In this document: positions 8,731 to 35,496 of the stretch, piece by piece
Numbering within the stretch: position 1 is the first letter of the stretch
Layout: every line of letters starts with the position of its first letter
Origin: Nemertoderma westbladi
Lineage: Eukaryota > Animalia > Xenacoelomorpha
NCBI GenBank assembly: GCA_032718475.1
Contig: JAUCBJ010007200.1
Span: forward strand, 62,001-126,000
DNA: 64,000 nucleotides
Reading direction: 5' to 3'
The notes under the pieces: model-generated
Databases searched by the model: none
The model's input: only the letters and a program-made list of their open reading frames with translations
Told to the model about the DNA's origin: nothing
Position numbers and translations under genes: made by a program

Positions 8731-11700
8731 TTACGTTATGGAGTCCCTAGATATTTGTTGGATTAGGGAGGTGGTCGTGGGAAGAGTATCTTGCCTTCCA
8801 TAGTTTCCGGACAGTTTTCGGTCTCTTTCCAGTAAACATAAACGACCAGCTGGGCGATTGAGTGGTTGTGTTACTTTCTCCGCTCCCTTGGCCTGTCTAA
8901 TCTTCACCGGAGTAAGATGAGGAGGCCATTCATCTTCTTTACTTAGGAAGTCGGGTTCACCTAACCAGTCTGTAGTATCTGTCAGTTCTTAAGGAGTTGC
9001 TCCTCTGGAGGCGATGTCGGCTAGATTGATCGTCTCGGGGCAATGTCTCCATTGATCTACATTGGAGTTGATGTCGTCATTATCTGAGGAGTATGGTGTT
9101 CCCTCAGTTGGGTCGTCAACTTCACTGCTCTCCACTTCCCGTTCACTTAATTGATATACCTGTTCTTTTGGTAATCTTTCTATAAGAGTTCTACGAGAAG
9201 GGCCAGTAAAGTACCAACCTACTCTAGTTCTTCCCGCATAGACTTGTAGTGGTTGCGGTTGAGCAGGCCGTTTCTCCAATGTCTCGAGCGCTTCATGCGC
9301 ATTTTGACCGATGAGTATTTGGACTCCAGGGTAATCGGTGTTGAATCTAGGTATTTCAAGCTGCTGGGTGAAATCGTCCTCATCCCAGTTATAAGGTTCC
9401 ACTTGGCTGGTCGCGAAGTTCTTTATCGCTACCATTTTTACTGACCTTATGCTGTGTTCTCCTAGTTCATCCTGGGGGGTGGACAATGCGCCTATATAGT
9501 AATCTGTAGTTACTGTAGATTTCCAAACCTGCATAATTCCTGACATGTTTAGCTTAGTTCGGAACTTGGGTTGTCCAGCAAAGATGTCTTCGGCTAGTTC
9601 TTTGTCGATGAATGTTCCTGTACTACCGGAGTCAAGGAGGGCGTTCACTACATAACTCCTTTTAGGTCCGTGGACCCTTACCTGGACTACAGGAAATTCT
9701 CGGATTCCTACATTGGAAGGTGGCGCTTTCCAAGATGGTTGTCTGTCAGAAGTAGTTAGGGGGAGCTCACTGTCGGTTTCCTTCTCATGCGTAAGTGCTC
9801 GATACACTGCGGTATTTATTAAGTAACAGGATTCGTTTTCGTCTGAGAATTCGTCCGTATAGAATCCTTCCATTTCAGAAATTTGGTCGGAGAATTCGTC
9901 CGTATAGAATCCTTCCATCTCAGAACTTTGGTCAGTGTCGTTCACATCACTGAATTGGACATGTAGTTTGGACTCACTTACCTGACTCGGGCTGTTTCTT
10001 TCGAATTCGGTGTGCAACAAAATATGATGTTTCGCGCCGCACTTCGCACACCTTGCGTCGGAGTAACAGGTTCGCCGTTGGTGTCCTCATCTGAGGCAAT
10101 TATAACACAACCGCTTATCCCACATGACTTCACGTGTATCCTTTAATGATTTCTTTAGGAATTTATCACACATATTCAAACGGTGGGGCCCGTCGCACAA
10201 CACACATTTGGGCTTGATGTTACTTACTTTAACATGTGCTGTGTGGTGCACGCTCGTTCTTTCCTCGGGCTTTCTCACCTGAATTCTCTTGGGAGACGTA
10301 GGAGGAGTTTTTCTTACCTGTTCTCTCCTGTCATTGGTTCGAGACTTGAATTTACTTACCTGTTCTTTAGGCGTTTTATTGACATAATAAGATCTTTCAG
10401 TGTCTTTCCCGCTATCCTCTCCTTGAGAAGTCTGGCTTTCGCTGTCGTCTGTATAACACACTGGTATTACCTTTCTCCTAGAGACGGGTTTCTCACTTAC
10501 CTTGCTTTCCGGTGTCTTCTCTCTGGACTGCTTTATGAGCTGTAATTTCACTTCGCCATCCAAGAATGACATGAGATCAGCCATGGTAGGGTCTCGTTGT
10601 TGTTGTTCCATCATATATAACACTGTCTTGTCCCAGCGTGTACCTAATCCACCCTTTGGCAGAGTTGATGCTAAGGCTCCTACAACCATAGAATTCTGGT
10701 ATTCATGAGACTTACCTAACCAATCTAGCTGTCTACAGATCTCCTGAATTTCGTCGGAAAACTCTATAATCCCGCTGCTAAGAAACTTTCAGGGCGCCAT
10801 TAATTTTGCATACAAATACCTAGCTATGTTAGTCCTATTACCATACCTGATGTTTATTGTATCCCAAACTTGTCTTAATCCATCTGGATGTCCAATAAAC
10901 TTTAACGCCATTAACTTGGGAGATCCCTCCAAGCACTCGATGAGGAATCTAAGCTTTTCTCCGTTAGATAACACGGAGTTCTGTATGTTATCTTTGTAAT
11001 ATTCATTAAAAGGTAACCATTTCATCTCATCTCCATTGAACTTGACGATCTCTCCCATCTTTACCGCTTGACGGGCTTCGGTTCTAGCCATTTGACGCGT
11101 AAAACTTTCTTGGGCCATCGTATTATTTAATATCGAGTTATTGGTATATAAATTTCTCGGATTATTATCAAGTCTATAGGGAATATCACTGTCAACAGGT
11201 TTATAATTACCCTTAATAGGGTTTACTATAGGAGTTTCTACTTCACTAACACTAACAGTATAGATGCGTGTAGGCTCCACACCTTGCGCATGAAATACTT
11301 CAGACCTAACAGGTTGACACATTGTTACAGAGGGTGGTGGTATACCCTTTTGTAAATTTACTAACTTATCGCATTCTAACGCGATACTTTGCTGCACTTC
11401 TTGCAACGCTAACCTACCCTCTCTTACTGCTCCCTTTAACTGCTGAACAGTCCCTTCCAACTCCCGGACCTGCTGGGAGGAACATTTACAATGTTCCCTC
11501 AGCTGCCCGAGCAGGAGACCCATCTCCCGTCGTCCCTCAGCTACCCACTCGACCGCCGAAGCGGGAGTCGCCAACGTAGTAGCGGACAAGCGAGAGACGA
11601 CGGGCGATAAATTCTTAATATCTCGCTCGGCGTCCAGGATGGGTTCGGACTCGGGAACAGTCCTACTGGGCACAGGTAGTTTCGTGCTGTGCAAAGGGAA

Positions 11701-12198: not shown

Positions 12199-14328
12199 GT
12201 TTGATTGTACAGTTGAATGCCTACTGCTATATTACAGTTAAAGCAAGTCTAGTAATTCAGTATCACTGTTAGCCTAGTAATTAATTACCGATATCGTTAC
12301 TCTATGTAACGTGATATATATACAATATATTAGAATACCGGTATGCTTATAGTATATATAAGTATTATTACAGACTAGGTTTGTCACAGAATACCGGTAT
12401 GCAGCTTACACTTATAATATATATATATATAAGTATAATTACAGACTAGAATCAATTACCGAATACCGGTATAATTTCAGCCTAAAATTTATAGAAATAA
12501 ATATAATAAGCCTATTGTAAATACCGGTATGTCAATTATTTTAGAATAATTGAATTTCTGAAATTTTAGGGGTTACTTGGTTACTTTAACTTACTTTATT
12601 ACCGTTATTTGAGCAGTAGTCCAACTGATATTGAGACCTAGTTGTTGTATGGCAGGCCTACTATTTATAAATCGTTTGAGTTGATTTATAATATATATAC
12701 CCGTTAAAATGGGTTTTTGTCAATATTTGAAATAAATGTTATTATTTCTGGGGGAGTCACTACACAGAAGCTGTGTGCTCTCAGTGGAGTGCTACTTGTT
12801 GGACACTAAAACAAATAATTCTAATTTACCTAAGTTACTTAATACTACAAATTACGTACAATTCGGGTTGAGATTACAATCTCTAAATAAACTCAAAAAT
12901 TTACAAGTACGAATTTTTAGGGTGATTTTACAAGAATTCTACAAACCAGCCTAACAAAGGGTTAGAATACCTGGTTATTACAACGGACAGGGTACTACGG
13001 TATTTGAAAATAATAAGTAGTAGTAAATATACTGCGTTGTCCAGATAGGAAAATACCACCGTCTGACGACCTATAGCCGTATCGCTATAGGTACTACGTT
13101 ATGTATCACGGAGTGTTCCTACCCAGAAGTTAATTACCACGGTCTACCAGAACCAACGTGCCTATTAACCACTTTACAACACAAATATACTGCCTACACA
13201 CTAATTACCTTCGGAAAGCACTGTACACTAAACCCTAAATTAGGTACAAGTACTTGTACAACAAATAATCAGTAGTTAAAAATACTTGAACAGCTAAAAG
13301 AACCACGGTATCTGCCAGAGTGACCAAAGCATAAAATCTCCAGTCTTTACCTACGCCAAGCAGCCCTGATGTAGTACCGGGGTTAGTTTAACTATAACGG
13401 TATGTATAACAAGCACAATTACTGTAGGGATAAATTTGGGGATATGAATGTTGCGAATAATCGCATAAACTCTGAATAATAAATATTACGCTACGCGTAC
13501 AGACTACTCAAACAAAATGCAGACCAAATACTGACAGACTACTATCAAGCCTAAACAAACTACGGTATATGCAGACTCCGAAATGGTTAGTTAGTATGCG
13601 TTCTAACCGAGTAGTACGACTTATTCTTTCAAAAGGGGGTTTACCTCACAGCACTGGAAGCCCCTACATTCCCAACTGGCACTTTATCGGACATATACTC
13701 TACACACGCCGAAATCTCCTCAGACCTAATAACAGCTAGGCAAAATCCAGCCTACAAATTATCTAAGTAAGAAATATTACGCTACCCGTACAAACTACAC
13801 AAACAAAATACAGACCAAACGCTGGCAGACTACTATTAAGCCTAAATAAACTACAGGACATGCAGACTCCGAAATGGTTAGTTAGTATGCGTTCTAACCT
13901 AGTAGTACGACTTATTCTTTCGGTGGGGGATTTACCTTACAGCTCTGGCTGCCCCTACATTTCTAACCGGCACTTTATCGGACATACACTCTACATGCAC
14001 TGCAATCCGTTCAGACCTATCAACAGTCAGACAACAGTCCAGCCTACAAATTATATGTACAATCTGAGCAGGTTTACACGTCTTTTGCTCAATATTAGCC
14101 TACTAGTAAATAAAACTGACAGAAATAAGTAAACCATGCAAAGGAATAAGGGGTGATCAATCCCTAATCCCCTAACAGCCTACAATATACAATATATCAC
14201 AATCGAAATAATACTGCTGTACCTGTACTGTAAGTAAGTACCGGTCCGGATGATCAGGCAGTCAGGCCTACTGGTTACCGGTCGACCGGTACTATCAACT
14301 TGATTGCTTACGCCGCAATCAAGAAGCT

Positions 14329-14339
14329 ATAACTGTTAC
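14329..14339 (-). promoter_or_regulatory. Primer-binding-site position of copy A (GTAACAGTTAT), complementary to its own LTR at 15080-15090
   Basis: Abuts the LTR terminal CA and lacks TGG. Plus-strand ATAACTGTTAC (14329-14339) and GTAACAGTTAT (15080-15090; 5021-5031 in the 3' LTR) are exact inverted repeats. Confidence 0.8.
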
Positions 14340-15538
14340 TGTTCGCGCTTTTAAGACCTTTGGCAGTTTAACCCGCCAAATCTATATGTCTTCTTGGTTA
14401 TAAATCGACTTTAGCCTATGACAAGTATTTGACACAAATAAATCCAACATTAGCCGAAGCCAGTCTATGCGCGACCATTCACCCGCTGGATATACCCGGG
14501 AGACTGGATTCGGATGCTTTAATTTGATTGCGGTGCAGGCCTACCGTACTATTCGATTGATCGTTAATATATAATCTCTGACAAATATTATTCACTTTCG
14601 GGAAATATTAGCAGTTCCTTTAGGACGTGGCGCTCTATCTATATAAACAGAGCTATGGCTTACACTAAACACAACGGAATGGATTATAAGTTACACATAA
14701 GGCGCATTCTTTAGGAGATGCTTTGTTACGCGGACAAGCACATACAGACTATTGCACACCGCTGCACACTGAATTGCCGATAGTCACTGATTTTAATCTT
14801 ATATAAAGAGAATAGCAACCGACATTTGTAGGGCCTATAAAATAGCATTCAATTCACTACAAACCACGATAATATAAGTCGCAATTGCTATATGTAGCCG
14901 GTCTCTCTAACCTTAGTGTATCAAGAAGATCGGGGTTTCTGATCGTTTTATAGTTATTCTCCAAATAACAATATGCAAACGAATGATACATTTAATAACA
15001 AACAGCAAATAGCAGTAAATAATGTGCAATACGTACCGTACCGTTATGTGTTCTTAGTGTCTCGTACCGTGCCGTGCCGGTAACAGTTATGTGTTCTTAT
15101 AATTAAAGATGTTCTAATGTTGGAATAATTCAGAAATATTCCACGGCCGATGTTTCTAGGCTCTGGAAAAACCAACACACTGAACCCTGTGAGCTGCTGC
15201 AGGTAGATTTCAACACAGAAAGGAAAAGCTCTCATTGGCAGAGCATCAGATTCCACAGGTTCCACGAATGTCTAAATGCCTAACTATCAGGGTTTTTGCA
15301 GCCCTTGGCCAGCACACAAAATGAGTCACTCCGCTCGGTTGCTCTGGTTGCATACTCTGTTGTTATAGCTCTGGTTGGCCGATCGAACGTAACAAAGAGG
15401 CCGTCGCTAGGCAAATCAGCCAATCAGCCGGTAGCTTTCATCCTTTGAGTTAGGGAGCTTTTTAGAGTATTCCAGCGCCTTGGGGGGGAACTGGATTGCG
15501 GAGCAAAGGGCCAGTTATATCCCACAAAAGCTTTTACA
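14340..15538 (-). repeat. 5' LTR of BEL copy A
   Basis: Direct repeat of 4281-5479. Element strand starts TGTAAAAGC and ends GCGCGAACA. Confidence 0.95.
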
Positions 15539-16255: not shown

Positions 16256-17519
16256 TGTAAAAGCTTCTGTGGGATAGAACTGGCCCCTTTTGCTTCGCAA
16301 TCCAGTTTCCCCCCAGGCGCTGGAATACTCTAAAAAGGTTCTCTAACTGTACATATATTCCCCTCGCCCGCAAGGTACCGTTACAGGTGTTTTAACGGAC
16401 ATAAAAGTCATTCTGCTATATACGTGTTTTAGCGGACATAGTAAGGCAAAAAACCTGCAATGCACCAAATGCCTTTCACAGCTTGGCCGTGATGATTCAT
16501 ATTACGACATCTAACAGCCGGTTGCTGACATGGAAACAGCCATTGGACGCATGGTTCTTTGTTTGGCTTGAGCCAATCAGAGCGATTTTTCCTGTCGACG
16601 TGTAGCTTTTCGGCCGATCATAAGGAGAGTGTTCAGTCTTACTGTTTTTACTTGATACTTTGTGTTATTGCTATCTAGGCCAGGAACAACGGCTCTAGAG
16701 TCAATTCGTTTTCATACTTTAGAAGAAACATTAGTAGGCTTAAATTATAGAGCGTATGACTGTTATCAATTCATATCAATGCATAACAATACTTTGTTCA
16801 CATCTTGTCATATCATATCTTAACTTACCGTCTTAATGCTGTTTACTGTTGTGTTTTGGTTGAATATTATTTGGAGAACATATATAAAGAACCCAAATTT
16901 CCCAATTTTCTTGATACACTACAGGTTAGAGAGGCGGGTTATATATAGCGATTGCGACTTATAATGTTGTGGTTTGTAGTGAATTTACTGCTATTTGATA
17001 AGCACTACATTGGTCCGTTGCTGTTCTCTTTATATATGATAAAAATCATTGACGGTCGGCAAATTAGTGGGCAGTATTGTGTGTTACCGGTAGTGTGCAT
17101 GATTGTGATGGATAACTAAGCATTTCCTAAAGAATGCGCCTCATACGTGAATCATAAGCCTTACCGACTTAACGTTGTGATTAGTATAAGTCATATCTCT
17201 GTTTACCTAGATAGAGCGCCACGTCCTAAAGGAACTGTTAATATTTCCCGAAAGTGAATAATATTAGTCAGAAATTATTTATTAACGATCAATCGAATAA
17301 TACAGTACAGTAAGCTTACACTGCAATAATAATCTAAGCCCTCAGAATCCAGTCTCCCGGGAATATCCAGCGGGTGAATGGACGCGCACTAGGCTGGCTT
17401 CTGCTAATGTTGTGTTTATTGGTATTAAATATTTGTCATCTTCTAAAGTATATTTATAAACCAAAAGACATATAAATTTTGGCAGGTTAAACTGCTAAAG
17501 GTCTTCAAAAGCGCGTACA
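16256..17519 (+). mobile_element. Solo LTR of the same BEL/Pao family (third LTR variant)
   Basis: TGTAAAAGC...GCGCGTACA flanked by TSD AGGTG (16251-16255, 17520-17524). 5' end resembles LTR A; the 3' block ATAGAGCGCCACGTCCTAAAGGAACTG is shared with A and B. Confidence 0.93.
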
Positions 17520-20990: not shown

Positions 20991-21123
20991 TAGAGTCTCT
21001 GTAACTTACTTCTTCGCTATGAAGATTGTTTATTCATTAATATGGAGGCTTTAGATGAATTAGTGGCGAATGTTGTTGCAGCGAGGCAAAGATATGAGGA
21101 CACGTTGGTAATTCAATAATACA

Positions 21124-21424
21124 CTACTACTAGGATCGGCATGCTGCATTGCAGCTGCATTTTTAAGAATGCTGTGTCGGCTTGTCGACAAAATTGCGCT
21201 GTCACAACTCCCTATCACCCATGACATTTGCTAGATCATCCGCATCTCCTAAGCCAGTGTCCTATAAGATGCGTCTCAAGAAAGTCATGGGCTGTCTACC
21301 ATGCTTATTCACTCCATGAGGCTGCCAAAGTACAAGATTATGCACTGGCTAGTCCTCACGGCGAATGCAATGTCCTGAAAGCGGAGGCGACTTTGTTCTA
21401 GAGTCAAGCTTGGGGGAACCAATG
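21124..21424 (-). mobile_element. 3' end of RTE-type LINE copy 1 (left part, split by BEL copy B)
   Basis: Reverse complement of ~44846-45146, including the (TAG)n tail. Joins 37513 seamlessly across TSD CAATG. Confidence 0.9.
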
Positions 21425-22672
21425 TGTAAAAGCCTTTGCTGAATTGCCCCGTTATTTTATTATCTTTTACATTAAAATACTCTGTAGTTGATTTAATAGG
21501 TGTAAGAGACCGTATTATTGCTGTATCGGTGTTTTTTAGAGGATCTAAGAGCTATTTCCTCCGTATGTGTACTGTGAAAGGCATAGTTGATGATTCTATG
21601 GCAATTCCGTGACGCAAAAGGTGATAGCTACTCTTGAACAGTAGTTACTATGACGACGGTTAACAGCTGATATTCATACGTGTTGATTTTCTTTGTTCTA
21701 CGGCGTCTCTCAGTTCAGTCAGCCAATCAGAGCATTTTTATGGCTCTTGTACAGAAATTTCCTAGAAATCACGCAATGCGTTATGGGCAGTGTTTACATT
21801 CTGTCCTGAGCCAGGAGAGAGCGGCTTGGGAATATTTTGTGCTTTTCTGTTTTAGCCTAACACTAGTAGGCTTAATTATAAGGACATATATCCGTTATCA
21901 AAACAAACTAAACAAACCACGGCACACTGGCCACTGGTTAATTGGCCCATACTCAATCAACGCAACATACCTAATCTAATATACCTGTGCATACTTTTAT
22001 ATTGTTATACTGCTATTTACTGTCGGTTCTTCATAATATGGTTGATGACTTATTATATTTGGAATAACGATAAATAACCCCGAAACCCAATATTCTTGAT
22101 ATACCAAAGGTAAGAGAGAAAGGTTACATATAACGATTGTGACTTATGTTAAAGTGGTTTGAAGTGAATCTAATGTTATTTGATAGACCCTACATGATTC
22201 GGTCTGTGTTCCTTTTATATGTGACTAAAATCAGTGAAGATCGGCAGATCAGTGTGCAGTATTGTGCAGCGTTGTGTATGAGTGAGACTGATAACGAAGC
22301 ATTTCCTAAAGAATGCGCCATATATGTGAATTATAACTAAGCCATATCGTTGTGAGTAGTTTAAGTCATAACTCTGTTTTTATAGATAGAGCGCCACGTC
22401 CTAAAGGAACTGTTAATATTCCCCGAAGGTGAATAATATTGTCAGAGATTATATAATACTGTCAGTCGAATAATACATTAGGCTTACATAGCAATAAGAT
22501 TAAGCCGTCGAACCCAATCTCCCGGGTATATCCAGCGGGTGAATGATCGCGCACAGATTGGTTTCGACTAGTGTAGTGAATCAAATACTTGTCAGAGGCT
22601 AAAAGTGATTTATTATCTAAAAGACATCCTAATTTGGCGGGTTAAACTGCCAAAGGTCTGAAAGCGCGAACA
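21425..22672 (+). repeat. 5' LTR of BEL copy B
   Basis: TGTAAAAGCC...GCGCGAACA; repeat of 36265-37512. CCAAT-like AGCCAATCAG at 21721 is conserved in all three LTR variants. Confidence 0.97.
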
Positions 22673-22683
22673 ATAACGGATAT
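22673..22683 (+). promoter_or_regulatory. Primer-binding-site position of copy B (ATAACGGATAT), complementary to its own LTR at 21888-21898
   Basis: Abuts the LTR terminal CA and lacks TGG. Exact reverse complement of ATATCCGTTAT at 21888-21898 (36728-36738 in the 3' LTR). Confidence 0.8.
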
Positions 22684-23041
22684 CGCTTCTTTATTGCAGT
22701 AAGCAATAAAGTTGAAAGTACCGGTCAACCGGTAAACCTGAACGGTACATCTGTGGGTCAGTAGGCCCAACTGCCAGAACCGGTACTGCTGTAGGCCCGT
22801 AGGTCCAACTGCCAGAATCGGTACTTCAGTAGGTCTGTAGGCCCAACTGTCCTAACCGGTACTTCTAGTATAAGTACATTAGTATTATTCGATTTGATTA
22901 TTGCATACCGGTAGGCTGTTTAAGAGATTAGGGACTGTACACCCCTTGTTTCTTTTGGAGCTTACTTATTTCTGTCAGTTTTATTTATTTGTAGGCCAGT
23001 ATTGAACAGAAGGCGTGTAAGCCTGATCATATTGTACAGAC

Positions 23042-23610
23042 AATTTGTAGGCTGAGCTGTTGTCTGATTGCTGTTAAGTCTGAATGGATTGCAGTGTGTG
23101 TAGATCACCTGTCCGATAAAGAACGGTTAGGAAGTAGGGGCAGCCAAAGCTGTAAGGTAAACCCCCATCTAAAGAATAAGTCGTACTACTGGGTTAGAAC
23201 GCATACTACCTAATCATTTCGGAGTCTGCATGTCCTGTAGTTTATTTAGGCTTGAGAGTAGTCTGCCATCGTTTAGTCTGTACTTTGTTTGTGTAGTCTG
23301 TACAGGTAGCGTATAATATTTATTTAGATAATTTGTAGGCTGGATAGTTGTCTGGCTGTTGTTAGGTCTGAACGGATTGCAGTGTGTGTAGAGCCTCTGT
23401 CCGATAAAGAACGGTTAGGAAGTAGGGGCAGCCAAAGCTGTAAGGTAAACCCCCATCTAAAGAATAAGTCGTACTACTGGGTTAGAACGCATACTACCTA
23501 ACTATTTCGGAGTCTGCATGTCCTGTAGTTTATTTAGGCTTGATAGTAGTCTGTCAGTATTTGGTCTGCATTTTGTTTGAGTGGTTTGTACGCGTAGCGT
23601 AATATTTATT
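23042..23610 (+). repeat. Two ~290-bp tandem units in the BEL 5' leader
   Basis: AATTTGTAGGCTG at ~23042 and ~23330. The same duplication is present in copy A (~13470-14055). Confidence 0.85.
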
Positions 23611-24930
23611 ATTCAGAGTTTATGCGATTATTCGCAACATTCATTCCCCAAGTTTGTTCCTACAATAATTGTGTTTGTTATACATACCGCTATAGTTAAA
23701 TTAACCCCGGTACTACACGGGCTGCTTGGCGTAGGTAAAGACTAGTGATTTTGTGCACTGGTCACTCCAGCAGATGCCGTGGTTCTTTTAGCTGTTCAAG
23801 TATATTTAACTACTGATTATATGTTGTACAAGTACTCGTACCTAATTTAGGGTTTAGTGTACAGTGCTTTCCGAAAGTAATTAGTGTAGACATTATATTT
23901 GTGTTGTAAAGTGGTTGATAGGCACGTTCGATTAGCTCTATTAACTTCTAGGTAGGAACACTCCGTGATACATAACGTAGTACCTATAGCGATACGGCTA
24001 TAGGTCGTCAGGCGGTGGTATTTTCCTATCTGGACAACGCAGTGTATTTACTACTACGTATTATTTTCAAATACCGCAGTACCCTGTCCGTTGTAATAAC
24101 CAGAATTCTAACCCTTTGTTAGGCTGGTTTGTAGACTTCTTGTAAAATTACCCTGAAAATTCGTATTTTGTGTTTTTTGTAAATTTTTGTGTTTATTTAG
24201 AGATTGTAATCTCACCCGAATTGTACGTAATTTGTAGTATTAAGTAACTTAGGTAAATTAGCATTATTTGTTTTAGTGTCCTATAAGTAACACTTCACTG
24301 AAAGCGCACCGCTTTGTGTAGTGATTACTCCCCAGAAATAATAACATTTATTTCAAACATTGACAAAACCCATTAAAACGGGTATATATATATTATAAAT
24401 CAAATCTAACGATTTATAAATAGTAGGCCTACCATACAACCATTAGGTCTCAATATCAGTTGGACTACTGCTCAAATAACGGTAACAAAGTAAGTAAAGT
24501 AACCAAGTAACCCTAAAATTCAGAAATTCAATTATTTAAAATAATTGATATACCGGTATTTACGATAGGCCTATTATCTTTATTTCTATAAGTTTCGACT
24601 GAAATTATACCGGTACTTGTAATTAATTCTAGTCCAGAATTATATATACTACAAACTGTAAGCTGTATACCGGTATTCCCGATAGGCCTATTATATATTT
24701 ATATATTTGTGCTAAAATTATACCGGTATTCTGTGATAAACCTAGTCTGTAATAATACTTATATAGTTATATATACTATAAAAGCATACCGGTATTCTAA
24801 TATAATATATATATCATGCTACACTGAGTAGCAGTATAGGTAATTAATTACTAGGCTAGCAGTTAATACTGAATTACTAGACTTGCTCAGACTGTAATAC
24901 AGCAGTAGACATTCAACTGTACACATAAAC

Positions 24931-27429
24931 ATGTCTGATACTAAGCAGAACCTGTCAGACAGTTTATTAGATGTAACTATCTGCGACTCAGATAGAGGCG
25001 TAGAACCGTCTAGTCGTAAGTTCAGTTCACCTCCCACTGTGAGGAAGGTCATCCCTCCTGTAGTAATAACAGAACCTAGGCTGGTCCAACATCGTAGGTC
25101 TATCATAGGCACTCGAGCTCAGGTCAAGCGGGACCAAGAAGCAGCAGAACAGCAACAACCCGCGAGCCAAGAACTTATTTCTCAACGGCCCAACAGCTCC
25201 AGTAGTGAAGACACTGTAGAACTGACACCCGAGCGCGGAGCAAGGATGACGGATGCGGTTTATTCGGATCCCCTTCTCATCCTTCCTGCAGCCGTACTCA
25301 CTAGGTTATTGATCGCTGTGGAAGAACACCAGATCGATTGGGCGAGAAGTAAGCGCTCAACTAAAGATAGTTATGCGGGATACACAAGGGAAGAACTGAA
25401 GTCTATGGTCGAGTCGCAATGGAACTTCCCCGGACCCGGACTCCCGTTTGATTTATCAGAAGCTGCCTGGGAAGACATACACCAGATGGGAGTAGCCAAG
25501 GAAACCATCGATCCAGCTGTGTGGAAGAGGTCCGCAGCCGGATACGCACAGGGATTCTTCAGCTCTATGGAGCGAGTAGAAAAACAACTGTTACAACAAC
25601 TTCAAGGACCTCAAGAGCAGGGACAACTGCTTTATCAAGTTAGAGAAAGAATTCTGCGAATCAGGCTAATATTATCAGCCTTTGAAGAGGCTTCTAAAAG
25701 AAGACAAGACACGTCGTTGCAAGTTGCCGTAAAGACTTGGTTTCAACGGGTGAGTCGCCAGGTTCAAGGAACAGCTCAGTGGAAAGCTCAGCTGGAGGAG
25801 CGCTCAACCCATGGAGAATCAACAGACGCTACTTTTTCCCAAGTGGAAAGTGAAGCGACGGCAGAGAAACCGCATAAGAGAGATGCCATCGACATCTATC
25901 TGTCAGACTATCAACGTTTTTTAGGTGATGACGAGTTGAGGAGAAGGTTAGATGGACTTAGCCCTAATAGCGAAGGAACTCAGCGTGTGTTGGATGCCAT
26001 CGATGTGGAAATGAGGGCTGCGAATCAGGCTAAATTTGATGAACAACTCCGCCTGACACGAGTCCAAGAAGAACAAGTAAAGAAAAAACGTATAGAAGAC
26101 AGAAAGAAAGCAGCAGTGGTAGCTGCAGAAGCAGAAAGAAAAGCGGCAGCGGCAGAAGCAGCGGCAGAGGCAAAAGCGGCAGCGGCAGCGGCAGAAGCAA
26201 AAGCGGCCGAAGCTGAAAGAAAGGCGGCAGAGGCAGTGGCAGAAGCAGAACGGAGAGCGACTGAAGAAACCACCCAATTAGAATTGGAAAACATTCAGGA
26301 GAATCAAGACTGCATAAATAAACAGTTAACAGCTAGTAATATGCAGATGATGAATCGATCTACTCCCAAAAGACAGGGATATACATCATCTGAGGAAGGC
26401 GATACCACCGATACTGAAGGCAAAGGAAATAGATCTCGTCTAAGCAGACGTAAAAGAACATTCCACTGTCAGAAATTGCCTGATTTGCCTCCAGCTGTTA
26501 GAAGGCAACTAAATAACACCAACTTAGGTAGTACAGAGCCCACAGACCAAATAATTAAAATAGAAAGACTCCCTACTATAGTAGATGAGCCTGAAATAAT
26601 TAGGCCTGTTTTTGAAATCACCCCTTCGGTGATAGACACACCTGTGCTCCCTGAAGCTACCTCTAAATTCCCTCTGCATAGCACTAAGCTACCTGTGCCC
26701 AGTAGAACTGCCCAGGAGACAGTTCAGGTCCTGGACCCCGAGCGAAATATTCATGATTTGTCGCCCGTTGTCCCTCGTCCGCCCGCTACAACGTTGGCGA
26801 CTCCCGCTTCGGCGGTCGAATGGGTGGACGAGAGACGGCGGGGGATGGATCTCCTGCTCGGGCAGATGCAGGAGACTGTTCAGCAATTCAAGGGCACAGT
26901 AAGGGAAAGTAGGCTAGAGTTGCAAGAAGTGCAGCAAAGTATCGCGCTAGAACGCGATAAATTAGTAAATACACAAAGGGGTATACCACCACCCTCGGTA
27001 ACAATGTGTCAACCTGTTAGGTCTGAAGTATCTCATGCGCAAGGTGTGGAGCCTACACGCATATATACTGCTAGCGAAGTAGAAACTCCTATAGTGAACC
27101 CTATTAAGGGTAATTATAGACCTGTTGATAATGACATTCCCTATAGACCTGATCATAATCCGATAAATTTATATACCGATAACTCGATATTAAATAACAC
27201 GATGGCCCAAGAAAGTTTTACGCGTCAAATGGCTAGAACCGAAGCCCGGCAAGCGGTGAAGGTGGGAGAGATCGTCAAGTTCAATGGAGATGAGATGAAA
27301 TGGTTACCTTTTAATGAATATTACAAAGATAACATACAGAACTCTGTACTATCTAATGGAGAGAAACTTAGATTCCTCATCGAGTGCTTGGAAGGATCTC
27401 CCAAGTTAATGGCGTTAAAGTTTATTTGA
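24931..27429 (+). CDS. BEL gag-pol part 1: long N-terminal coiled-coil/Ala-rich region and start of the Gag DUF1759-type domain (ends at a GGA>TGA nonsense)
   Basis: 832-aa ORF. Copies A and C read ...LKFIGHPDG through this codon. The downstream ORF at 27505 is in the same frame. Confidence 0.9.
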   Translation: MSDTKQNLSDSLLDVTICDSDRGVEPSSRKFSSPPTVRKVIPPVVITEPRLVQHRRSIIGTRAQVKRDQEAAEQQQPASQELISQRPNSSSSEDTVELTPERGARMTDAVYSDPLLILPAAVLTRLLIAVEEHQIDWARSKRSTKDSYAGYTREELKSMVESQWNFPGPGLPFDLSEAAWEDIHQMGVAKETIDPAVWKRSAAGYAQGFFSSMERVEKQLLQQLQGPQEQGQLLYQVRERILRIRLILSAFEEASKRRQDTSLQVAVKTWFQRVSRQVQGTAQWKAQLEERSTHGESTDATFSQVESEATAEKPHKRDAIDIYLSDYQRFLGDDELRRRLDGLSPNSEGTQRVLDAIDVEMRAANQAKFDEQLRLTRVQEEQVKKKRIEDRKKAAVVAAEAERKAAAAEAAAEAKAAAAAAEAKAAEAERKAAEAVAEAERRATEETTQLELENIQENQDCINKQLTASNMQMMNRSTPKRQGYTSSEEGDTTDTEGKGNRSRLSRRKRTFHCQKLPDLPPAVRRQLNNTNLGSTEPTDQIIKIERLPTIVDEPEIIRPVFEITPSVIDTPVLPEATSKFPLHSTKLPVPSRTAQETVQVLDPERNIHDLSPVVPRPPATTLATPASAVEWVDERRRGMDLLLGQMQETVQQFKGTVRESRLELQEVQQSIALERDKLVNTQRGIPPPSVTMCQPVRSEVSHAQGVEPTRIYTASEVETPIVNPIKGNYRPVDNDIPYRPDHNPINLYTDNSILNNTMAQESFTRQMARTEARQAVKVGEIVKFNGDEMKWLPFNEYYKDNIQNSVLSNGEKLRFLIECLEGSPKLMALKFI

Positions 27430-27504
27430 CATCCAGACGGATTAAGACAAGTTTGGGATACACTAAACATCAGGTATGGTAATAGGAATAACATAGCTGG
27501 GTAT

Positions 27505-30500
27505 TTGTATGCAAAGTTGGTAGCGCCCCGAAAGTTTATTAGCAACGGGATTATAGAGTTTTCCGATGAAATTCAGGAGATCTGCAGACAATTAGATTGG
27601 CTAGGTAAGTCTCATGAGTATCAGAGTGCTATGGTTATTAGAGCAGTGGCTTCTACTTTACCGAAGGGTGGAGTAGGTACACGCTGGGACAAGAAAGTGT
27701 TATACATGATGGAACAACAACAACGAGACCCTACCATGACTGATCTCATGACATTCTTGGATGGCGAAGTGAAATTACAGCTCATAAAGCAGTCCAGAGA
27801 GAAGACATCGGAAAACAAGGTAAGTGAGAAACCTGTCTCCAGAAGAAAGGTGACACCAGTGTGTTATACCGACGACGGCGAAAGCCAAGCTTCCCAAGGG
27901 GAGGATAGCGGGAAAGACACTGAAAGATCTTATTATGTCAATAAAACACCTAACGAACAGGGAAGTAAATTTAAGTCTCGATCCAATGACAAGAGAGAAC
28001 AGGTAAGAAAAACTCCTCCTACGTCTCCCAAGAGAATTCAGGTAAGAAAGCCCGAAGAAAGAACGAGAGTGCACACTGTCACCCAAAATAAGGTAAGTAA
28101 CATCAAACCGAAATGTGCGCTGTGTTACGGGACCCACCGTTTGAATATGTGTGATGAATTCCTGAAGAAGTCATTAACGGAGAGACGCGAAGTCATGTGG
28201 GATAAGCGGTTATGTTATAATTGCCTCAGACAAGGACACCAACGGCGAACCTGTTACTCTGACATAAGGTGTGCAAAGTGTGGTGCGAAACATCATATCT
28301 TGTTGCACGATGAATTCGATCGAAATAGTCCTAATCAGGTAAGTGATTCCGAACTACATGTCCAATTCAGTGATGTGAACGACACTGATCAATCTGAGAT
28401 GGAAGGATTCTATACGGACGAGTTCTCCGACGAAAACGAATCCTGTTACATGATAAATACCGCAGTGTATCGAGCACTCACATATGAAAAAGATACAGAC
28501 AGCGACTTCACTCTAACTACTTCTGATCGACAACCATCGTGGAAAGCACCAATTTCCGATGTAGGAATCCGAGAATTTCCTGTAGTCCAGTTACGGGTCC
28601 ATGGACCTCAGAAGAGCTATATAGTGAACGCCCTCCTGGACTCCGGCAGCACAGGAACATTCATTGATAAAGAACTAGCCGAAGACATCTTCGCTGGACA
28701 ACCCAAGTTCCGAACCAAGCTAAATATGTCAGGAATTATGCAAGTTTGGAAATCTACAATAACAGCGGATTATTATGTAGGAGCGTTGTCCACCCCCCAG
28801 GACGAACTAGGAGAACATAGCATAAGGTCAGTGAAAATGGTGGCTATAAAGAACTTCGCTACTACTCAAGCAGACCTTTATAATTGGGACGAGGATGAGA
28901 GCATCCAACATCTTAAGATACCTCGATTCCAGACTGATTATCCTGGAGTGCAAATACTCATCGGCCAAAACGCGCATGAGGCGCTGGAGACATTAGAGAA
29001 ACGGCCTGCTCAACCACAGCCACTACAGACCTATGCGGTAAGAACTAGAGTAGGTTGGTACTTTACTGGCCCTTCCCGTAGAACACTCAGAGAAAGACTA
29101 CCGCAAGACCGCGTCTGCCAGGTGAGTGAATGGGAAGATGATACTAGTGAGGGAGACGATTTAACTGAGGGAACCCCATACTCCTCAGATAACGACGACG
29201 TTCACCAGCTTTTTGATGAGGAGAATACCATCGATCTCCTTAAGGAAAACGAGGCTTGGCAAAACCAAGTGAACTTATGTCAACTTCTTTATCCATCTGA
29301 ACAAGAAGCTTATAACGACGAGTTAAATGATGTCATTGAGCGTTGTAATGCCAAGACTCGAGATGAACATGCCGTACGATTCTTTACGCAAGAGGCGGTA
29401 GAGCCCAATTCCTACGATAAAGCTTTGTCGGTGGAAGAGGAAAGGGCCAAGCAGATCCAAGAGACAACTACACGTTTCCTCAAAGATCAAGGTAGGTATG
29501 AAGTCGGTCTACCTTTCCGCAAGAGAGAACCGAAGTTCATCAATAACAGACCCTTGGCGGAAAAAAGAATCGCGCAACTCCAACGACGCCTTACGGCTAA
29601 TTCTTCAGCTAAAGAAATGTATCAAACACAGCTGGAGAAATTTATTAGTAAGGGATACGCGGAGAGAGTACCGGAAGAAACACCTGTGACTGAAAGAACG
29701 TATTACTTAACTCACCATTACGTTCCAAAGCCCGGTAAACCACATGAAGTGAGAGTAGTGTTTGATGGCTCCGCTCTTTACATGGGTCAATCCCTTAACT
29801 CTGAATTGTTACCCGGACCCAACTTACTTCAATCTTTGTTGGGAATTCTTTTAAGATTGAGACAATATTCGATTGCTTTCGCCTCCGATATAGAAGGCAT
29901 GTTCTTACAAGTCAAAGTGTTAGATAGGGATCGATATAGTCTACGATTTCTGTGGTGGCCCGAAGGAGACCTCAACCAGAAACCGGTGGAGTACTGGATG
30001 ACCATCCAGGCCTTTGGGATAATCTCAAGCCCTTCCAACGCCTGTTCGGTAGTGCGTACCACTGCAGAGGACAACCGAGAGGCATTCTCTAAGGAAGTGA
30101 TCGACAACATCAAGCGGGACATATACATGGACGACAATCTGAAGTCCCTCCCATCAGTTGAGGAAGCCATTGAGGTCGCTAAAGGAACGGTAGAGTGCTT
30201 AAAAAGAGGTGGGTTTCGATTAACGAAATTCACCAGCAACTCCCGTGAGTTTCTGGAGTCGATCCCTGCGGAAGATCGAGGGGCGAAAGATCTAGATTTG
30301 ATCAAAGATGATCTGCCAGAAACCAAGACACTCGGCTTGAAATGGGACACAGAGCGAGATATCCTGTTTTTCCAGCTAAAACAGCGAGATAATCCAGTTC
30401 GAACCAAACGGATTTGCTTAAGTATACTGAGCACTTATTTCGATCCATTGGGATTTATTAGCCCAGTTATATTGATTGCTCGTAGTTTGGTACAACAAAT

Positions 30501-30879
30501 GTGGCTTGAAAACCACTCATGGGACGATCCACTTAAGGGAGAATTATTAAAGAAGTGGATGAAATGGGAAGATTCTCTGCCGGCTATCGAGGATTTTATA
30601 ATTTCCCGTTCATATTTTGGTCATGTTCTCCCTACGTATTCTTATCAACTCCATGTGTTTGGAGACGCCAGCGATATGGCAATAGGTATAGTAGCCTATC
30701 TAAGAGTGGAAACTCCGGATGGAATCAAAGTCGCCTTGGTTACTTCTAAGGCATTAATCAACAACAAGTTGAAAGTTCCTCGAGCGGAGTTAAAAGCGGC
30801 TCTATACGCTACAGCCATCGGCCGGAATGTAACAGAACAGATTGACTATCCATTAGAGAAAACTGTCTATTGGCTATAA
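27505..30879 (+). CDS. BEL gag-pol part 2: zinc knuckles, aspartic protease, reverse transcriptase, RNase H
   Basis: CALCYGTHRLNMC / CYNCLRQGHQRRTC / CAKCGAKHHILLH; ALLDSGST; RVVFDGS, GPNLL, SDIEGMFLQV, YMDD; HVFGDAS, PRAELKAA. Confidence 0.95.
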   Translation: MYAKLVAPRKFISNGIIEFSDEIQEICRQLDWLGKSHEYQSAMVIRAVASTLPKGGVGTRWDKKVLYMMEQQQRDPTMTDLMTFLDGEVKLQLIKQSREKTSENKVSEKPVSRRKVTPVCYTDDGESQASQGEDSGKDTERSYYVNKTPNEQGSKFKSRSNDKREQVRKTPPTSPKRIQVRKPEERTRVHTVTQNKVSNIKPKCALCYGTHRLNMCDEFLKKSLTERREVMWDKRLCYNCLRQGHQRRTCYSDIRCAKCGAKHHILLHDEFDRNSPNQVSDSELHVQFSDVNDTDQSEMEGFYTDEFSDENESCYMINTAVYRALTYEKDTDSDFTLTTSDRQPSWKAPISDVGIREFPVVQLRVHGPQKSYIVNALLDSGSTGTFIDKELAEDIFAGQPKFRTKLNMSGIMQVWKSTITADYYVGALSTPQDELGEHSIRSVKMVAIKNFATTQADLYNWDEDESIQHLKIPRFQTDYPGVQILIGQNAHEALETLEKRPAQPQPLQTYAVRTRVGWYFTGPSRRTLRERLPQDRVCQVSEWEDDTSEGDDLTEGTPYSSDNDDVHQLFDEENTIDLLKENEAWQNQVNLCQLLYPSEQEAYNDELNDVIERCNAKTRDEHAVRFFTQEAVEPNSYDKALSVEEERAKQIQETTTRFLKDQGRYEVGLPFRKREPKFINNRPLAEKRIAQLQRRLTANSSAKEMYQTQLEKFISKGYAERVPEETPVTERTYYLTHHYVPKPGKPHEVRVVFDGSALYMGQSLNSELLPGPNLLQSLLGILLRLRQYSIAFASDIEGMFLQVKVLDRDRYSLRFLWWPEGDLNQKPVEYWMTIQAFGIISSPSNACSVVRTTAEDNREAFSKEVIDNIKRDIYMDDNLKSLPSVEEAIEVAKGTVECLKRGGFRLTKFTSNSREFLESIPAEDRGAKDLDLIKDDLPETKTLGLKWDTERDILFFQLKQRDNPVRTKRICLSILSTYFDPLGFISPVILIARSLVQQMWLENHSWDDPLKGELLKKWMKWEDSLPAIEDFIISRSYFGHVLPTYSYQLHVFGDASDMAIGIVAYLRVETPDGIKVALVTSKALINNKLKVPRAELKAALYATAIGRNVTEQIDYPLEKTVYWL

Positions 30880-30895
30880 AACTGTCTATTTACTC

Positions 30896-33016
30896 GTGTT
30901 AGAGTATATAACCAATGAAGTCTGTCAGTTCAGCATCTTCGTTACCAACAGAGTAGCCATCATACTTAGTCGCACGACGATGGACCAATGGAGACATTGC
31001 CCCGGAACGATTAATCCAGCAGACATCGCTTCCCGAGGAGCGACTCCAAAGGAATTGGTAAATACTCCCGAATGGTTAGGTGGAGCCGACTTTCTCTACA
31101 GAGAAGAAGAAGAATGGCCTCCCCATCTCACAACAGCAGAGATCAGACAGGCCAAGGGAGCGGAGAAAGTTAAACCCAAAACTCGAGCGAGTAAATCGAA
31201 GTTGTTTAAACCTGCGGTTGATCTATCTGTATTATTTACTTCCGGAGAGGATGCTTTGGATCAGAAACCCACCACCACGACTAAAGAAGTCTTGGAAATC
31301 TGTGACAAGGATTGGAAATCTGGTATACCAGATATCGCGCAAGGACTCTCACCCCTCTTGCAGAGAGCGATACGTCACTACAGCTCCTGGAATCGGCTCT
31401 GTAAAGCCGTCACCTATTTAAAACGATGTTTTCATCATCGTTACTCCGGGACAAAGACCACTAGTGATGATGCTCCATCAACATCTGCACGAGTCCATGT
31501 TGTTAAAGATCTTCCCAAATACAAGATATCCGACAGGTTTCTAAAGGAGAAGATCAGTTACCAGGAGCATGATGAAACCAACAAACAGATGCTGAGACTC
31601 CTACAATGCTATGAGGATCCCGATAAGTATTTCCTGTTGTTAAGAAATCCGCAGATGCGCTTAAGGGATCGCTTCTCTAGTACCATGATAGATGGGTTAA
31701 TACGTGTTGGAGGCAGGCTTACCAACGCCCCATTATCCTTTGACACTAAATTTCCCATACTCATTAGAAATCTTGACATACAAATCAAGATGATTGTAGA
31801 TGTTCATAGCAAACTGTATCATGCTGGAAGAGAACGAGTTCTGAGCGAAATTCGAACTCGCTTCTATTTTTATAAACCCCGTAGGGCTCTGAACCAAGTC
31901 CTTAGGAACTGCATACCCTGTAGGAAAGCATTCAGTAGGCCTTTGACACAGCGAGAGGCAGAATTACCTAGGGAAAGAGTAAGCTTCTATGAACCCCCCT
32001 TTACCAATACCGGTGTGGATTTATTTGGCCCTATTGAAGTATATCGTGCCCGGACTATAGTCAAGAGATGGTGTGTCATCTTCGTTTGTATGACTTGTAG
32101 AGCTATCCATCTCGATATGGTAAACGATCTATCCACCAACAGCTTCGTGTTGAGTTTACGACGACAGATCGCTCGTTTCGGAACCAGTAACATGATGAGA
32201 TCGGATAAGGGAACGAACTTCATTGGCGCCAACAACGAAATTCAAGCTTACGTAAAGGACTGGAACAAAAGACAGGTGGACGATCAGCTAAAGATAACAG
32301 CGTCTAGCTGGACCTTCAACGCCGCCGACGCCCCTTGGTGGGGAGGAAGTTGGGAGAGATTGATTAGGAGCATGAAGACTGCGTTCCACTTTATTGTACC
32401 TTGTCGCGCTTATCTCACCGACGAACTATTGCGGACGTTAATGGAGGAAATCGCCGCCTATCTCAACGAAAGACCGCTTATGCCAGTCTCTTCAAGTCCT
32501 GATTCCCTGGAAGCGCTAACACCCGCGCACTTTCTACTGAAGAAACCCGTAGCCATGCTCCCACAATCGGAGATCACAGACGGAGACGAGTACTGCCGTC
32601 GAACCTGGCAACTTATGCAGTTGCTATCCCGTCGTTTCGCTGACCATTTCGAGAAACATTACCTGCCCACTCTACAACTTCGAACTAAGTGGTTTGCGCA
32701 GCAAGAAAACGTCAGCGCTGGAGACATGGTGCTTATTGTGGACCCCGACCTCCCACGTAAGCGATGGCAAACAGGATGTATCATCGAGACTTATATCTCG
32801 AGCGATGGTTTGGTGCGATCAGTAGAACTCGTCGTCATGCGGCGTAACTTTAAGAAACCAGGGATAGTCTTTGAGACTCAACAGCTCAACCGCCCAGTGG
32901 GTCGTTTATGTTTACTGGAAAGAGACAGAGAGCTCTCCGGAAACTATGGAAGGCAAGAAACTCTTCCCACGACCACTTCCCTAATCCAACCGACATCTAG
33001 GGACTCCCCAACTTAA
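30896..33016 (+). CDS. BEL gag-pol part 3: end of RNase H, integrase (HHCC, DDE), DUF5641-type C-terminus
   Basis: WRHCPGTINPADIASRG; H-x3-YH...CIPC; GVDLFGP, RSDKGTNF, GGSWERLIRSMK; GDMVLI...DGLVRSV. Frameshifted from part 2 by a lesion at ~30870-30890. Confidence 0.95.
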   Translation: MLEYITNEVCQFSIFVTNRVAIILSRTTMDQWRHCPGTINPADIASRGATPKELVNTPEWLGGADFLYREEEEWPPHLTTAEIRQAKGAEKVKPKTRASKSKLFKPAVDLSVLFTSGEDALDQKPTTTTKEVLEICDKDWKSGIPDIAQGLSPLLQRAIRHYSSWNRLCKAVTYLKRCFHHRYSGTKTTSDDAPSTSARVHVVKDLPKYKISDRFLKEKISYQEHDETNKQMLRLLQCYEDPDKYFLLLRNPQMRLRDRFSSTMIDGLIRVGGRLTNAPLSFDTKFPILIRNLDIQIKMIVDVHSKLYHAGRERVLSEIRTRFYFYKPRRALNQVLRNCIPCRKAFSRPLTQREAELPRERVSFYEPPFTNTGVDLFGPIEVYRARTIVKRWCVIFVCMTCRAIHLDMVNDLSTNSFVLSLRRQIARFGTSNMMRSDKGTNFIGANNEIQAYVKDWNKRQVDDQLKITASSWTFNAADAPWWGGSWERLIRSMKTAFHFIVPCRAYLTDELLRTLMEEIAAYLNERPLMPVSSSPDSLEALTPAHFLLKKPVAMLPQSEITDGDEYCRRTWQLMQLLSRRFADHFEKHYLPTLQLRTKWFAQQENVSAGDMVLIVDPDLPRKRWQTGCIIETYISSDGLVRSVELVVMRRNFKKPGIVFETQQLNRPVGRLCLLERDRELSGNYGRQETLPTTTSLIQPTSRDSPT

Positions 33017-33560
33017 TATCGTTCGGAGTGGGCGTGTGACTCTATTATTTTATATTATTTTATTATTTTTATATTTATGTATGTATTACTATGTAATTTT
33101 ATTATAATCGTTTTATTTAATTTAGTAGAATATTATTTAGCGATTATTTAGTAGAATAGTGCAATATATTCGTGTTTATTGCGTACGTAATTACTTATAT
33201 TATATTTAGTGTGACGGTGAGAAACAAGTGTTTTTCTCTTTCCTTACTGTCCGTATTATATTATAAATACGTAACTACAGTAAGATGAAATGTCCGTACT
33301 TATTAAAGTACAATAAAGCCACTACTATATTCAAGTATTATTGGTAGGCAGAGTATTAGGAATGCAAAGTTCAGATCCTCGTGTCTCGGCTAAACCAAGC
33401 TCTGGGTAGACCTTGGAAACGACTTGCCTCTTCACACTAACATTGCTTCGTGCGATATTGCTCTCATACCTTATATTAAATAATACATATAGTAGCGTGA
33501 TGTCCCTTTAACAGTAGCGTATAACGCAAAATAAATCTGTTAAACCCTTTGACCATCTGT

Positions 33561-33850
33561 AATTCTAGTCGATTAAGATATCGCGGCACCCACCGATATA
33601 CTTGAAAGACAAATTCTAGAATCAGTGGTTAACGTCCCCAGACAAGTTCTGGAATAAATTGGTGCCCATCTCAAATATTAATTATTTAATATTTGCAAAT
33701 CTAATAAATCAAATCTGTAAAATTCAGATCCTTCAACAATTCTAGTCAATTAAGATATCGTAGCATTTACCGATATTCTTAAAAAGACAATTTTCATAGA
33801 ATTAAGGATCTTGTGTCCCCAGACATGTTCTAGAATCAAAATATGTCCAT
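33561..33850 (+). repeat. Duplicated module (period ~177 bp) in the non-coding region after pol
   Basis: AATTCTAGTC(G/A)ATTAAGATATCG...GTCCCCAGACA.GTTCT.GAAT at ~33561 and ~33738. Also present in copy A (~7895-8180). Confidence 0.8.
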
Positions 33851-34665
33851 TTAATTATCAAATAATAAAATTTCAGGGAATAAATTTAAATTCATGCCTT
33901 TTAATGAATTTAATAAATTGCCATTTTTACGCAATTTACAACATTCCCAAAATTCCATTAATTAATAGATCAAGGGAGCGGAGATTTATCTATTATGCGT
34001 ATGAGTGTGCGAAAGTCTCCCAAACATAGTCAATAGCCGATAAAATTCATAAAGTCATGTATCAAACAGGACATTGACTATTAAAGAATTACTATTAAAT
34101 AACATCCCAGATCTGTATGCATGGGAATTACCCTAATTCTACCGCTAGCTTTACATAATGTCACCATAGCAACAACCACGCTAGAATTAGAATTGAGTTA
34201 AAAGAACAATAGAAAGCTTGTCCCATTGAATAGCATAGGGAATAAATAGCGCACTGCTAGTATCCAAGGATACATAATAATACAGTGACATTCTGGAAGG
34301 CATTGACTAACTGACAAATGGCCCGAATGTGCGTAGTTGTGACCAGTTGTGTGGTATTTGTGAGTTTATAGGTGAATGTTACTGCTAAAGTGTGTTTACA
34401 GTAGCTAGTCGCAATCGTGAAAGTAACCTAACTCTCCAAGGAAAACCTGAAGTACATCTAAGCCTTTGGGACGGACAGTGGAGTGACTTGTGCCGGTTAT
34501 CGTTGTCGTTGTACGGCTACGTCGTTGGCGAAAGTACAGCGACAGCGGTACATCGGCGCTGAGAATCTCACACTGTCCGGGGGCAAGGGAGAAGTAGGCA
34601 GCGACGCCCGCTCGCCTAATAAATATATAAACTCATTATAATATTGGTGAACTCGTATAGCAGAT

Positions 34666-35487
34666 ATGACGGAATTAATAGAAGATGATCTTGGTATCAG
34701 GGAGAGATATACTCTACCTTTACAAGCGTTTGTCGATAGCTTGATACGCGGCGACACTGATCCAACTACTACGGAGGACGATGGTCGTTACATCGAACCG
34801 CCAATGTCCCAGGAGCAACTTACGCGTGAATTGGACTATAGAAAATTCACTGCTCGCTATACGCATCGTAATGGTACGTATATGGACTTCCTGACTACTG
34901 GTCATCCTATTGATTTACACGGCACCGACGATGTAGACACCGAAAGGGAAATGGTTTTATTTAAATATCATACCCAGCGGAAGCGGAACGATAAACTGAG
35001 ACTCGAACACGAAAATTCTATTCGAAACCGACTCGAAAGTGCAGATGTCGAAGAGCCGGATAAACGCAGCGACTCCACCAAATACCTGGAATGCTTGAGA
35101 GAAACCTATCTCGATATTACCAGTCAACAGAATCTAGAAACTCGATATCCTCAAGGTATACATCATGACCGCATGGTAGAACTCAAACGGCTCTGTTCCA
35201 CTATGATGTATCTTACCGCTGATCGACCGCTGCCTGTTGCACCGGATAGCTTCGAACGGATGGAGGAGTATTGTGAACTGGAGAAAGATCACTCGAGTTT
35301 CCCCTACAAGACGTACGTCTTTGGTGTTGTTGCGATGGATGCCCTAGACCCAACCAACAAACGGAAAGACCTAAACATCCGTGGAGACGTTGTATTAAAC
35401 ACGGTTTTACTCGCTATATTTACGGGAGTTTCGAGCGAAATTTGTTTGACGTATCACCTACGCTCGTTCGACTCAGACGATCCTTAA
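34666..35487 (+). CDS. Accessory ORF2 of BEL element, 273 aa, unknown function, not env-like
   Basis: ATG-initiated ORF between pol and the 3' LTR, preceded by TATATAAA at 34624-34631. Homolog in copy A. No signal peptide or clear C-terminal membrane anchor. Confidence 0.65.
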   Translation: MTELIEDDLGIRERYTLPLQAFVDSLIRGDTDPTTTEDDGRYIEPPMSQEQLTRELDYRKFTARYTHRNGTYMDFLTTGHPIDLHGTDDVDTEREMVLFKYHTQRKRNDKLRLEHENSIRNRLESADVEEPDKRSDSTKYLECLRETYLDITSQQNLETRYPQGIHHDRMVELKRLCSTMMYLTADRPLPVAPDSFERMEEYCELEKDHSSFPYKTYVFGVVAMDALDPTNKRKDLNIRGDVVLNTVLLAIFTGVSSEICLTYHLRSFDSDDP

Positions 35488-35496
35488 ATAAACCAA

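Follow-up and report, generated by a model that had tools for sequence, protein, structure and literature searches.

Tf1/sushi LTR retrotransposons prime reverse transcription with their own RNA. In Tf1, the primer is cut from the element's RNA by RNase H and extended by reverse transcriptase, according to the available parts of PMC7175516 and PMC10085805; the latter also defines the three-duplex fold around the Tf1 PBS. The accessible text of PMC6317226, PMC4600332, PMC10085805, PMC5341516 and PMC6934838 treats Tf1/sushi as self-priming and predicts the same mode for the Tcn1 clade and the Copia TAR lineage (Houba, Osr-1), these predictions being made in PMC6317226. BEL/Pao elements are normally described as tRNA-primed, as a first-pass annotation of the present DNA had stated: the ICTV profile of the Belpaoviridae gives host-tRNA priming, an 18-nt PBS for tRNA-Arg or tRNA-Gly and genomes of 4.2-10 kb (PMC8742986). 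The terms PBS, tRNA and priming are absent from the main text of two BEL/Pao papers (PMC554778, PMC3118150), and the available portions of PMC3601003, PMC2774666, PMC12440569 and PMC13524379 contain nothing on BEL/Pao self-priming. Our literature search on BEL/Pao priming or a spliced primer, which covered openly accessible papers, found no report of self-priming. The named BEL/Pao clades are BEL, Pao, Tas, Suzu, Sinbad, Dan, Flow and Sailor.

A BEL/Pao family in the window

The window (the whole 64-kb stretch of DNA analysed here) contains elements A, B and C of one BEL/Pao family and a solo LTR, D, that was absent from the first-pass annotation:

21425-37512 (+), element B, a BEL/Pao LTR retrotransposon of 16.1 kb with target duplication CAATG
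21425-22672 (+), 5' LTR of B, TG...CA, 1248 nt
36265-37512 (+), 3' LTR of B, with a short purine tract directly before it
24898-33016 (+), gag-pol of B, in three ORF pieces
15538-4281 (-), element A, an internally deleted BEL/Pao relative with target duplication ATGGT
16256-17519 (+), solo LTR D, same family as A and B and its third LTR copy, target duplication AGGTG
51026-59144 (+), element C, an internal region of the same BEL/Pao family, interrupted by a Gypsy insertion

The LTR ends of A and B are fixed by the paired LTR copies and the target duplications, which are 5 bp long in A, B and D. The 5' and 3' LTRs of B differ at 3 positions and those of A (15538-14340 and 5479-4281, minus strand, 1199 nt) at 6. 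Both pairs are thus close to identical, and A and B are young elements. The gag-pol of B is broken by an in-frame stop (27427-27429) and a frame break near 30857-30879, A is without most of the RT-RNase H-integrase region, and no family LTR of element C was found within the window. Where A is internally deleted it carries 190 nt from the RNase H region (8875-9067) that are 84% identical to C versus 80% to B, which suggests template switching among family members. B is inserted in a LINE-like RT fragment that flanks it at 21123-21424 and 37508-38980; a second copy of the fragment lies inverted at 43397-45148.

Pfam assigns the proteins of the family to BEL/Pao (PF05380, E 4e-35; PF18701, E 2e-18). 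In B, gag-pol carries DUF1759 (weak), the Pao peptidase A17, an integrase zinc finger and DUF5641; DUF1759 scores under the cut-off in B and over it in A and C, and PF05380 is present in all homologues among those listed. The Pao-type pol and gag domains that identify BEL/Pao (Peptidase_A17, DUF1759, DUF5641) are thus in place, as are the protease-RT-RNase H-integrase order, the TG...CA LTRs and the short target duplication. The 18-nt PBS for tRNA-Arg or tRNA-Gly, a descriptive trait of the group, is absent from A and B; we filed the family by its proteins and treat the missing tRNA-type PBS as its departure. No chromodomain was matched by Pfam in the family, which sets it outside the Ty3/gypsy chromoviruses that include Tf1/sushi. 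The A/B family is not a Tf1/sushi member; it may work like one.

Further features of the window include a 278-aa ORF (34651-35487, plus strand) between the integrase and the 3' LTR of B, without a Pfam match and in a region 91% identical in A; env-like genes usually sit between integrase and 3' LTR. The 2.2-kb leaders of B and A each contain a tandem duplication of ~290 nt (23038-23610 and 13471-14054), and a 42-nt tandem array, whose copies reach 99% identity, occupies 40970-41545.

The PBS is complementary to a site in the element's own LTR

The following sites were compared:

22673-22683 (+), PBS of B, exact complement of 21888-21898, without TGG
21888-21898 (+), candidate self-primer of B, at the end of a conserved island beyond which the sequence is hypervariable
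14329-14339 (-), PBS of A, exact complement of 15080-15090
15080-15090 (-), candidate self-primer of A, the site in A's LTR
16756-16766 (+), 11-mer variant at the aligned site of solo LTR D, with 2 differences from A and 3 from B
63959-63963 (-), start of the PBS of the Gypsy element, tRNA-type: a 2-nt spacer, then TGG, with the LTR end at 63964

The four 11-mers of A and B lie where the first-pass annotation had placed them, and in both elements the PBS is the exact reverse complement of the element's own LTR site. The match abuts the LTR end without a spacer in A as in B, and in both it extends over 11 nt and no further. The two LTR sites fall in the same alignment columns and are homologous; the differences between the two PBSs are compensated in 3 of 3 cases, always by Watson-Crick pairs. 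No alternative TGG site follows the LTR of A or B, and the Gypsy element, which had been named as an internal contrast, indeed carries a tRNA-type TGG 2 nt past its LTR end. All 11 PBS-LTR pairs are Watson-Crick in both elements and none is G-U, unlike in the U5 hairpin close by, where G-U pairs do occur. When the pairs are swapped, so that one element's PBS is set against the other's LTR, matches reach 5-6 nt at most, and the duplex energy is -2.7 and -5.0 kcal/mol versus -12.0 and -11.7 kcal/mol for the own pairs. A and B therefore share with Tf1/sushi a PBS whose 11-nt complement lies within the LTR of the same element.

An 11-nt match was retained in 19 of 20,000 dinucleotide shuffles of the LTR for B and in 7 of 20,000 for A; the chance estimate of 3e-4 made earlier is about right for A and ~3-fold low for B. 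Exact LTR complements were found for 1 of 13,571 interior 11-mers in B and 3 of 8,839 in A. The match holds in 2 of 2 full elements, the only two full copies that represent the family here. Since A and B are related and are not independent draws, the covariation is the telling evidence. Element A retains the match despite its missing RT, as expected of a cis signal. Splice-junction partners were also sought for the PBSs of A and B; the best reached 6-7 nt under loose rules and none passed strict rules. Neither a tRNA gene nor an Rfam match was found within the 64-kb window. An unrestricted inverted-repeat scan was too noisy and was not used. Overall, the signature of tRNA-independent priming in this BEL/Pao sequence is real and statistically strong, and the mechanism that it points to is inferred.

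The 11-mer lies at a probable U3/R border

Columns identical in all three LTRs make up 19% of 21501-21820, 67% of 21888-21899, 9% of the 91 nt after that and, from 22110 onwards, 67-78%. In run X1, contig depth falls from 376,020 to 1,772 in the bin next to the 11-mer. Divergence upstream and conservation downstream of the 11-mer, together with this drop in contig cover, fit a U3/R border. In 3 of 3 LTRs the 11-mer begins with an A that is preceded by a pyrimidine.

The first-pass annotation had pointed to a TATA-like element close upstream of the 11-mer. It is present in A and B (TATAAG, at -11) but has a divergent form in D that the TATA pattern does not match; an AATTATA-type block upstream of the 11-mer is conserved in all three LTRs. 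The spacing between TATA and the transcription start in animals is about 30 nt. With such spacing TATAAG at -11 would place the start past the 11-mer, which counts against a start at 21888. No AATAAA was found anywhere in the three LTRs, and no U/GU-rich tract directly after the 11-mer. Further downstream lies a candidate intron:

22110-22385 (+), candidate LTR intron with GT-AG borders, lying downstream of the primer, its donor present in all three LTRs

No splice joint for this intron was seen in the contigs of the public runs; it may serve a spliced mRNA. Nowhere is the LTR better conserved than just past the acceptor of this candidate intron.

Contigs from part of the stretch are present in six public runs, four of which were compared; none of the runs is recorded as RNA, although X5 may be. 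The LTR-PBS junction is covered by these contigs. Population records carry 2-7 differences each, with at least two in the PBS among those listed. These are 22673 A>T and 22677 C>A; X1 and X3 show either one at roughly half of their depth, and in X5 a single contig carries both, at equal depth. The double variant matches neither the PBS of A or B nor the one predicted from D, which counts against self-priming; compensation of it would fall at LTR positions 21898 and 21894. The differences listed also include an LTR variant one position off the 11-mer of B.

Predicted RNA folds around the PBS

Conserved helices surround the PBS:

22544-22552 (+), 5' arm of the U5 helix, predicted to pair with the last 9 LTR nt, 22664-22672
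22633-22654 (+), 8-bp inverted-repeat hairpin of U5, conserved among A, B and D with two one-sided G-U changes
22689-22711 (+), leader hairpin just 3' of the PBS, with one compensated pair between A and B

The predicted 9-nt U5 helix stops at the final base of the LTR, beside the predicted primer helix; 8 of its 9 pairs are kept in A, B and D, and one is compensated in D. Folding B from 21888 gives a minimum-energy and a centroid structure that agree in pairing the first 11 nt with the PBS. For long-range folds of this kind, which are weak evidence, the predicted probability of the primer helix in B RNA starting at the 11-mer is 0.94-0.95 at all four 3' ends tried and at most 0.01 with 30 extra upstream nt. 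In A RNA starting at the 11-mer it is 0.97-0.98 at two of four 3' ends and drops to 0.00 and 0.41 at the two longer ones because of a competing site ~50 nt past the PBS. Two parts of the three-duplex ('pretzel') fold, the central and 5'-side duplexes, are predicted and conserved. The third, 3'-side duplex with the LTR was not found in the fold predictions, where that flank of the PBS folds locally.

Self-complementary PBSs in distant BEL/Pao relatives

We searched for relatives with an RT-RNase H alignment of 51 proteins and took 80 metagenome loci of the 489 that passed (34-45% identity; about 40% in the RT); 55 of the 80 have no readable LTR end. The RT query found no relative among viral contigs, and the exact LTR-end pattern had 0 matches in metagenome contigs. 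Contiguous and exon-junction complements were both scored. In the ten scored loci the LTR end was set by two copies, except for one set by a family twin and one set only approximately. A self-complementary PBS is present in 8 of the 10. Seven of these, from six families (L007, L015, L016, L028, L034, L055, L060), pair over 10-15 nt across a GT-AG splice junction inside the LTR, and L023 has a contiguous 11-mer match; L021 and L068 have tRNA-type TGG sites and no self-match. Per positive locus, no more than 3 of 1,500 interior control sites pair over as great a length. The paired stretch starts within 0-4 nt of the LTR end, both in the eight positive loci and in A and B.

Weaker cases, in which the site was chosen by the match, are the seven loci passing the strict junction rule (L002, L010, L014, L019, L025, L050, L070) and L043, whose match is contiguous. 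L047 is junction-type under the loose rule only. Junctions were read by eye in L004 and L022, which failed the strict rule; for L008, L053 and L071 (junction), as for L037 (tRNA-type), the type comes from reading by eye alone. A blind scan gave matches in 10 of 26 other loci, 7 of which (L011, L027, L031, L037, L038, L054, L061) were judged background, being off the LTR end or in coding or low-complexity sequence. L038 had been dropped before scoring, with no match and a repeat that probably stops short of the LTR end.

In an unrooted tree of 24 sequences, L043 is sister to L047 (UFBoot 100), followed by L008 (98) and L053 (93). The contiguous L043 is thus nested among junction-type families, and the simplest way for its primer to have become contiguous is intron loss. 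A long branch made up of B and C lies on the same side of this unrooted tree as the tRNA-type loci and L050. Among the relatives, pairing covers between 10 and about 16 nt and the primer often begins on a pyrimidine, so that an internal primer fits as well as a 5'-terminal one.

By eye, nearly all self-complementary PBSs begin with purine-T. The base after the predicted primer is mostly C in relatives, as in A, B and D (also by eye), and could be a cleavage-site preference. The LTRs of L007, L023 and L055 apparently end in TA, not CA, and are separated from the PBS by a spacer of 2-4 nt.

Proposed mechanism and alternatives

The best reading is that the A/B family uses a segment of the LTR in its own RNA as primer, a Tf1-like self-priming that we regard as likely. 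Transcription would start at or close to the 11-mer, at the U3/R border, and the 5' segment of the RNA would fold back ~785 nt onto the PBS, beside the U5 helix. By analogy with Tf1, the element's RNase H would cut after nt 11 and leave a 3'-OH, from which RT would synthesize a strong-stop cDNA of ~774 nt. It is established for retroelements that plus-strand synthesis makes the new PBS by copying the primer; this copying would explain the strict Watson-Crick match, its sharp end and the way in which the PBS tracks changes of the LTR.

In relatives whose primer is split by an LTR intron, splicing would assemble it. As the junction-type intron lies upstream of the primer 3' end, it would be inheritable only from the unspliced 3' LTR, and a fully spliced RNA, once copied, would lose the LTR intron exactly. 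The contiguous primer of the A/B family may have arisen by such a loss, on a tree that is unrooted. On balance we lean towards a broader picture, in which a large animal branch of BEL/Pao self-primes, mostly with a spliced primer, contiguous families result from precise intron loss, and lineages switch between tRNA, spliced and contiguous priming.

Four other explanations of the match were weighed. Self-priming could draw on the 3'-LTR copy, with transcription starting just past the 11-mer and the primer lying near the RNA 3' end, where it is cut or sits at the polyadenylation site, or coming from a second packaged RNA. TATAAG at -11 in A and B, the AATTATA-type block of all three LTRs and the lack of AATAAA in each of them speak for this arrangement. 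We nevertheless think it improbable: the TATA-like word is short of the full consensus and divergent in D, the 11-mer lacks a U/GU-rich tract right after it, and a cut at that position would part the strand-transfer acceptor from the RNA, so that a second RNA would be needed. A regulatory RNA helix acting in packaging, dimerisation or a splicing or translation switch, with priming by something else, is somewhat less probable again. The region is rich in conserved helices and priming itself is inferred, but the pairing is strictly Watson-Crick, keeps within 0-4 nt of the LTR end in the 8 positive relatives and in A and B, and is missing from the two scored TGG loci, while A and B are without an alternative TGG.

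Much less can be said for a host tRNA fragment or small RNA as primer with an incidental LTR match. Half-tRNA primers do exist in Copia lineages, according to the available text of PMC6317226, yet every family would need its own host RNA plus a chance LTR match, at rates of at most 1e-3 per element, and we consider this very unlikely. Chance or an assembly artefact is scarcely credible. The homology of A and B and the background level of the blind scan (7 of the 10 matches among 26 loci) do lend it something; against it stand the three compensated changes, the presence of the site in both LTR copies, the contigs over the junction and the 8 of 10 scored relatives. We therefore retain priming from the LTR segment of the element's own RNA as the preferred reading.

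Significance and comparison with known systems

Should many BEL/Pao elements self-prime, each of the three major LTR superfamilies would have known or predicted cases of tRNA-independent priming, which would no longer be confined to one fungal and vertebrate Gypsy group. Annotation tools based on the PBS would then miss such elements. Silencing of LTR elements by tRNA fragments that target the PBS is known, and it too would miss elements that self-prime. The intron-split form, if true, would couple the start of reverse transcription to host splicing. The A/B family, very abundant in host reads and with a contiguous primer, offers the simplest place to test the mechanism.

With the Belpaoviridae the family shares Pao peptidase, DUF1759, DUF5641 and integrase, the PR-RT-RH-IN order, TG...CA LTRs and the purine tract; it differs in that A and B are without a tRNA-type PBS and B is 16 kb long (PMC8742986). 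Like the present case, self-priming in Copia TAR and Tcn1 was inferred from sequence alone, and TAR lies outside the chromoviruses; those are plant Copia and Gypsy elements, and neither a covariation test nor an intron-split primer is mentioned in the available text (PMC6317226). Given the TAR prediction made there, BEL/Pao would not stand alone outside the chromoviruses. An independent origin of self-priming in BEL/Pao is plausible, on an unrooted tree.

The closest likeness is to Tf1/Tf2 of Schizosaccharomyces pombe, Tj1 and Tf1/sushi, which have an 11-nt PBS right after the 5' LTR, complementary to a site within the LTR, and a U5 helix next to the PBS. Element B and Tf1 agree in their first five PBS bases, as far as the accessible part of PMC11042837 goes, possibly through convergence or chance. 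The family differs from Tf1/sushi in its BEL/Pao proteins, in giving no chromodomain match, in the ~785-nt loop within a 1.2-kb LTR and in the 3'-side duplex, which was not found here. Priming has been shown experimentally for Tf1 only, and here it is proposed from sequence. The proposal of Tf1-like self-priming in BEL/Pao is partly supported, by complementarity, covariation and 8 of 10 scored relatives, with the qualification that the primer of relatives is usually intron-split, unlike that of Tf1. Self-priming itself was already known (Tf1/sushi) or predicted (Copia); its putative occurrence in BEL/Pao and the predicted intron-split variant are what this family and its relatives add.
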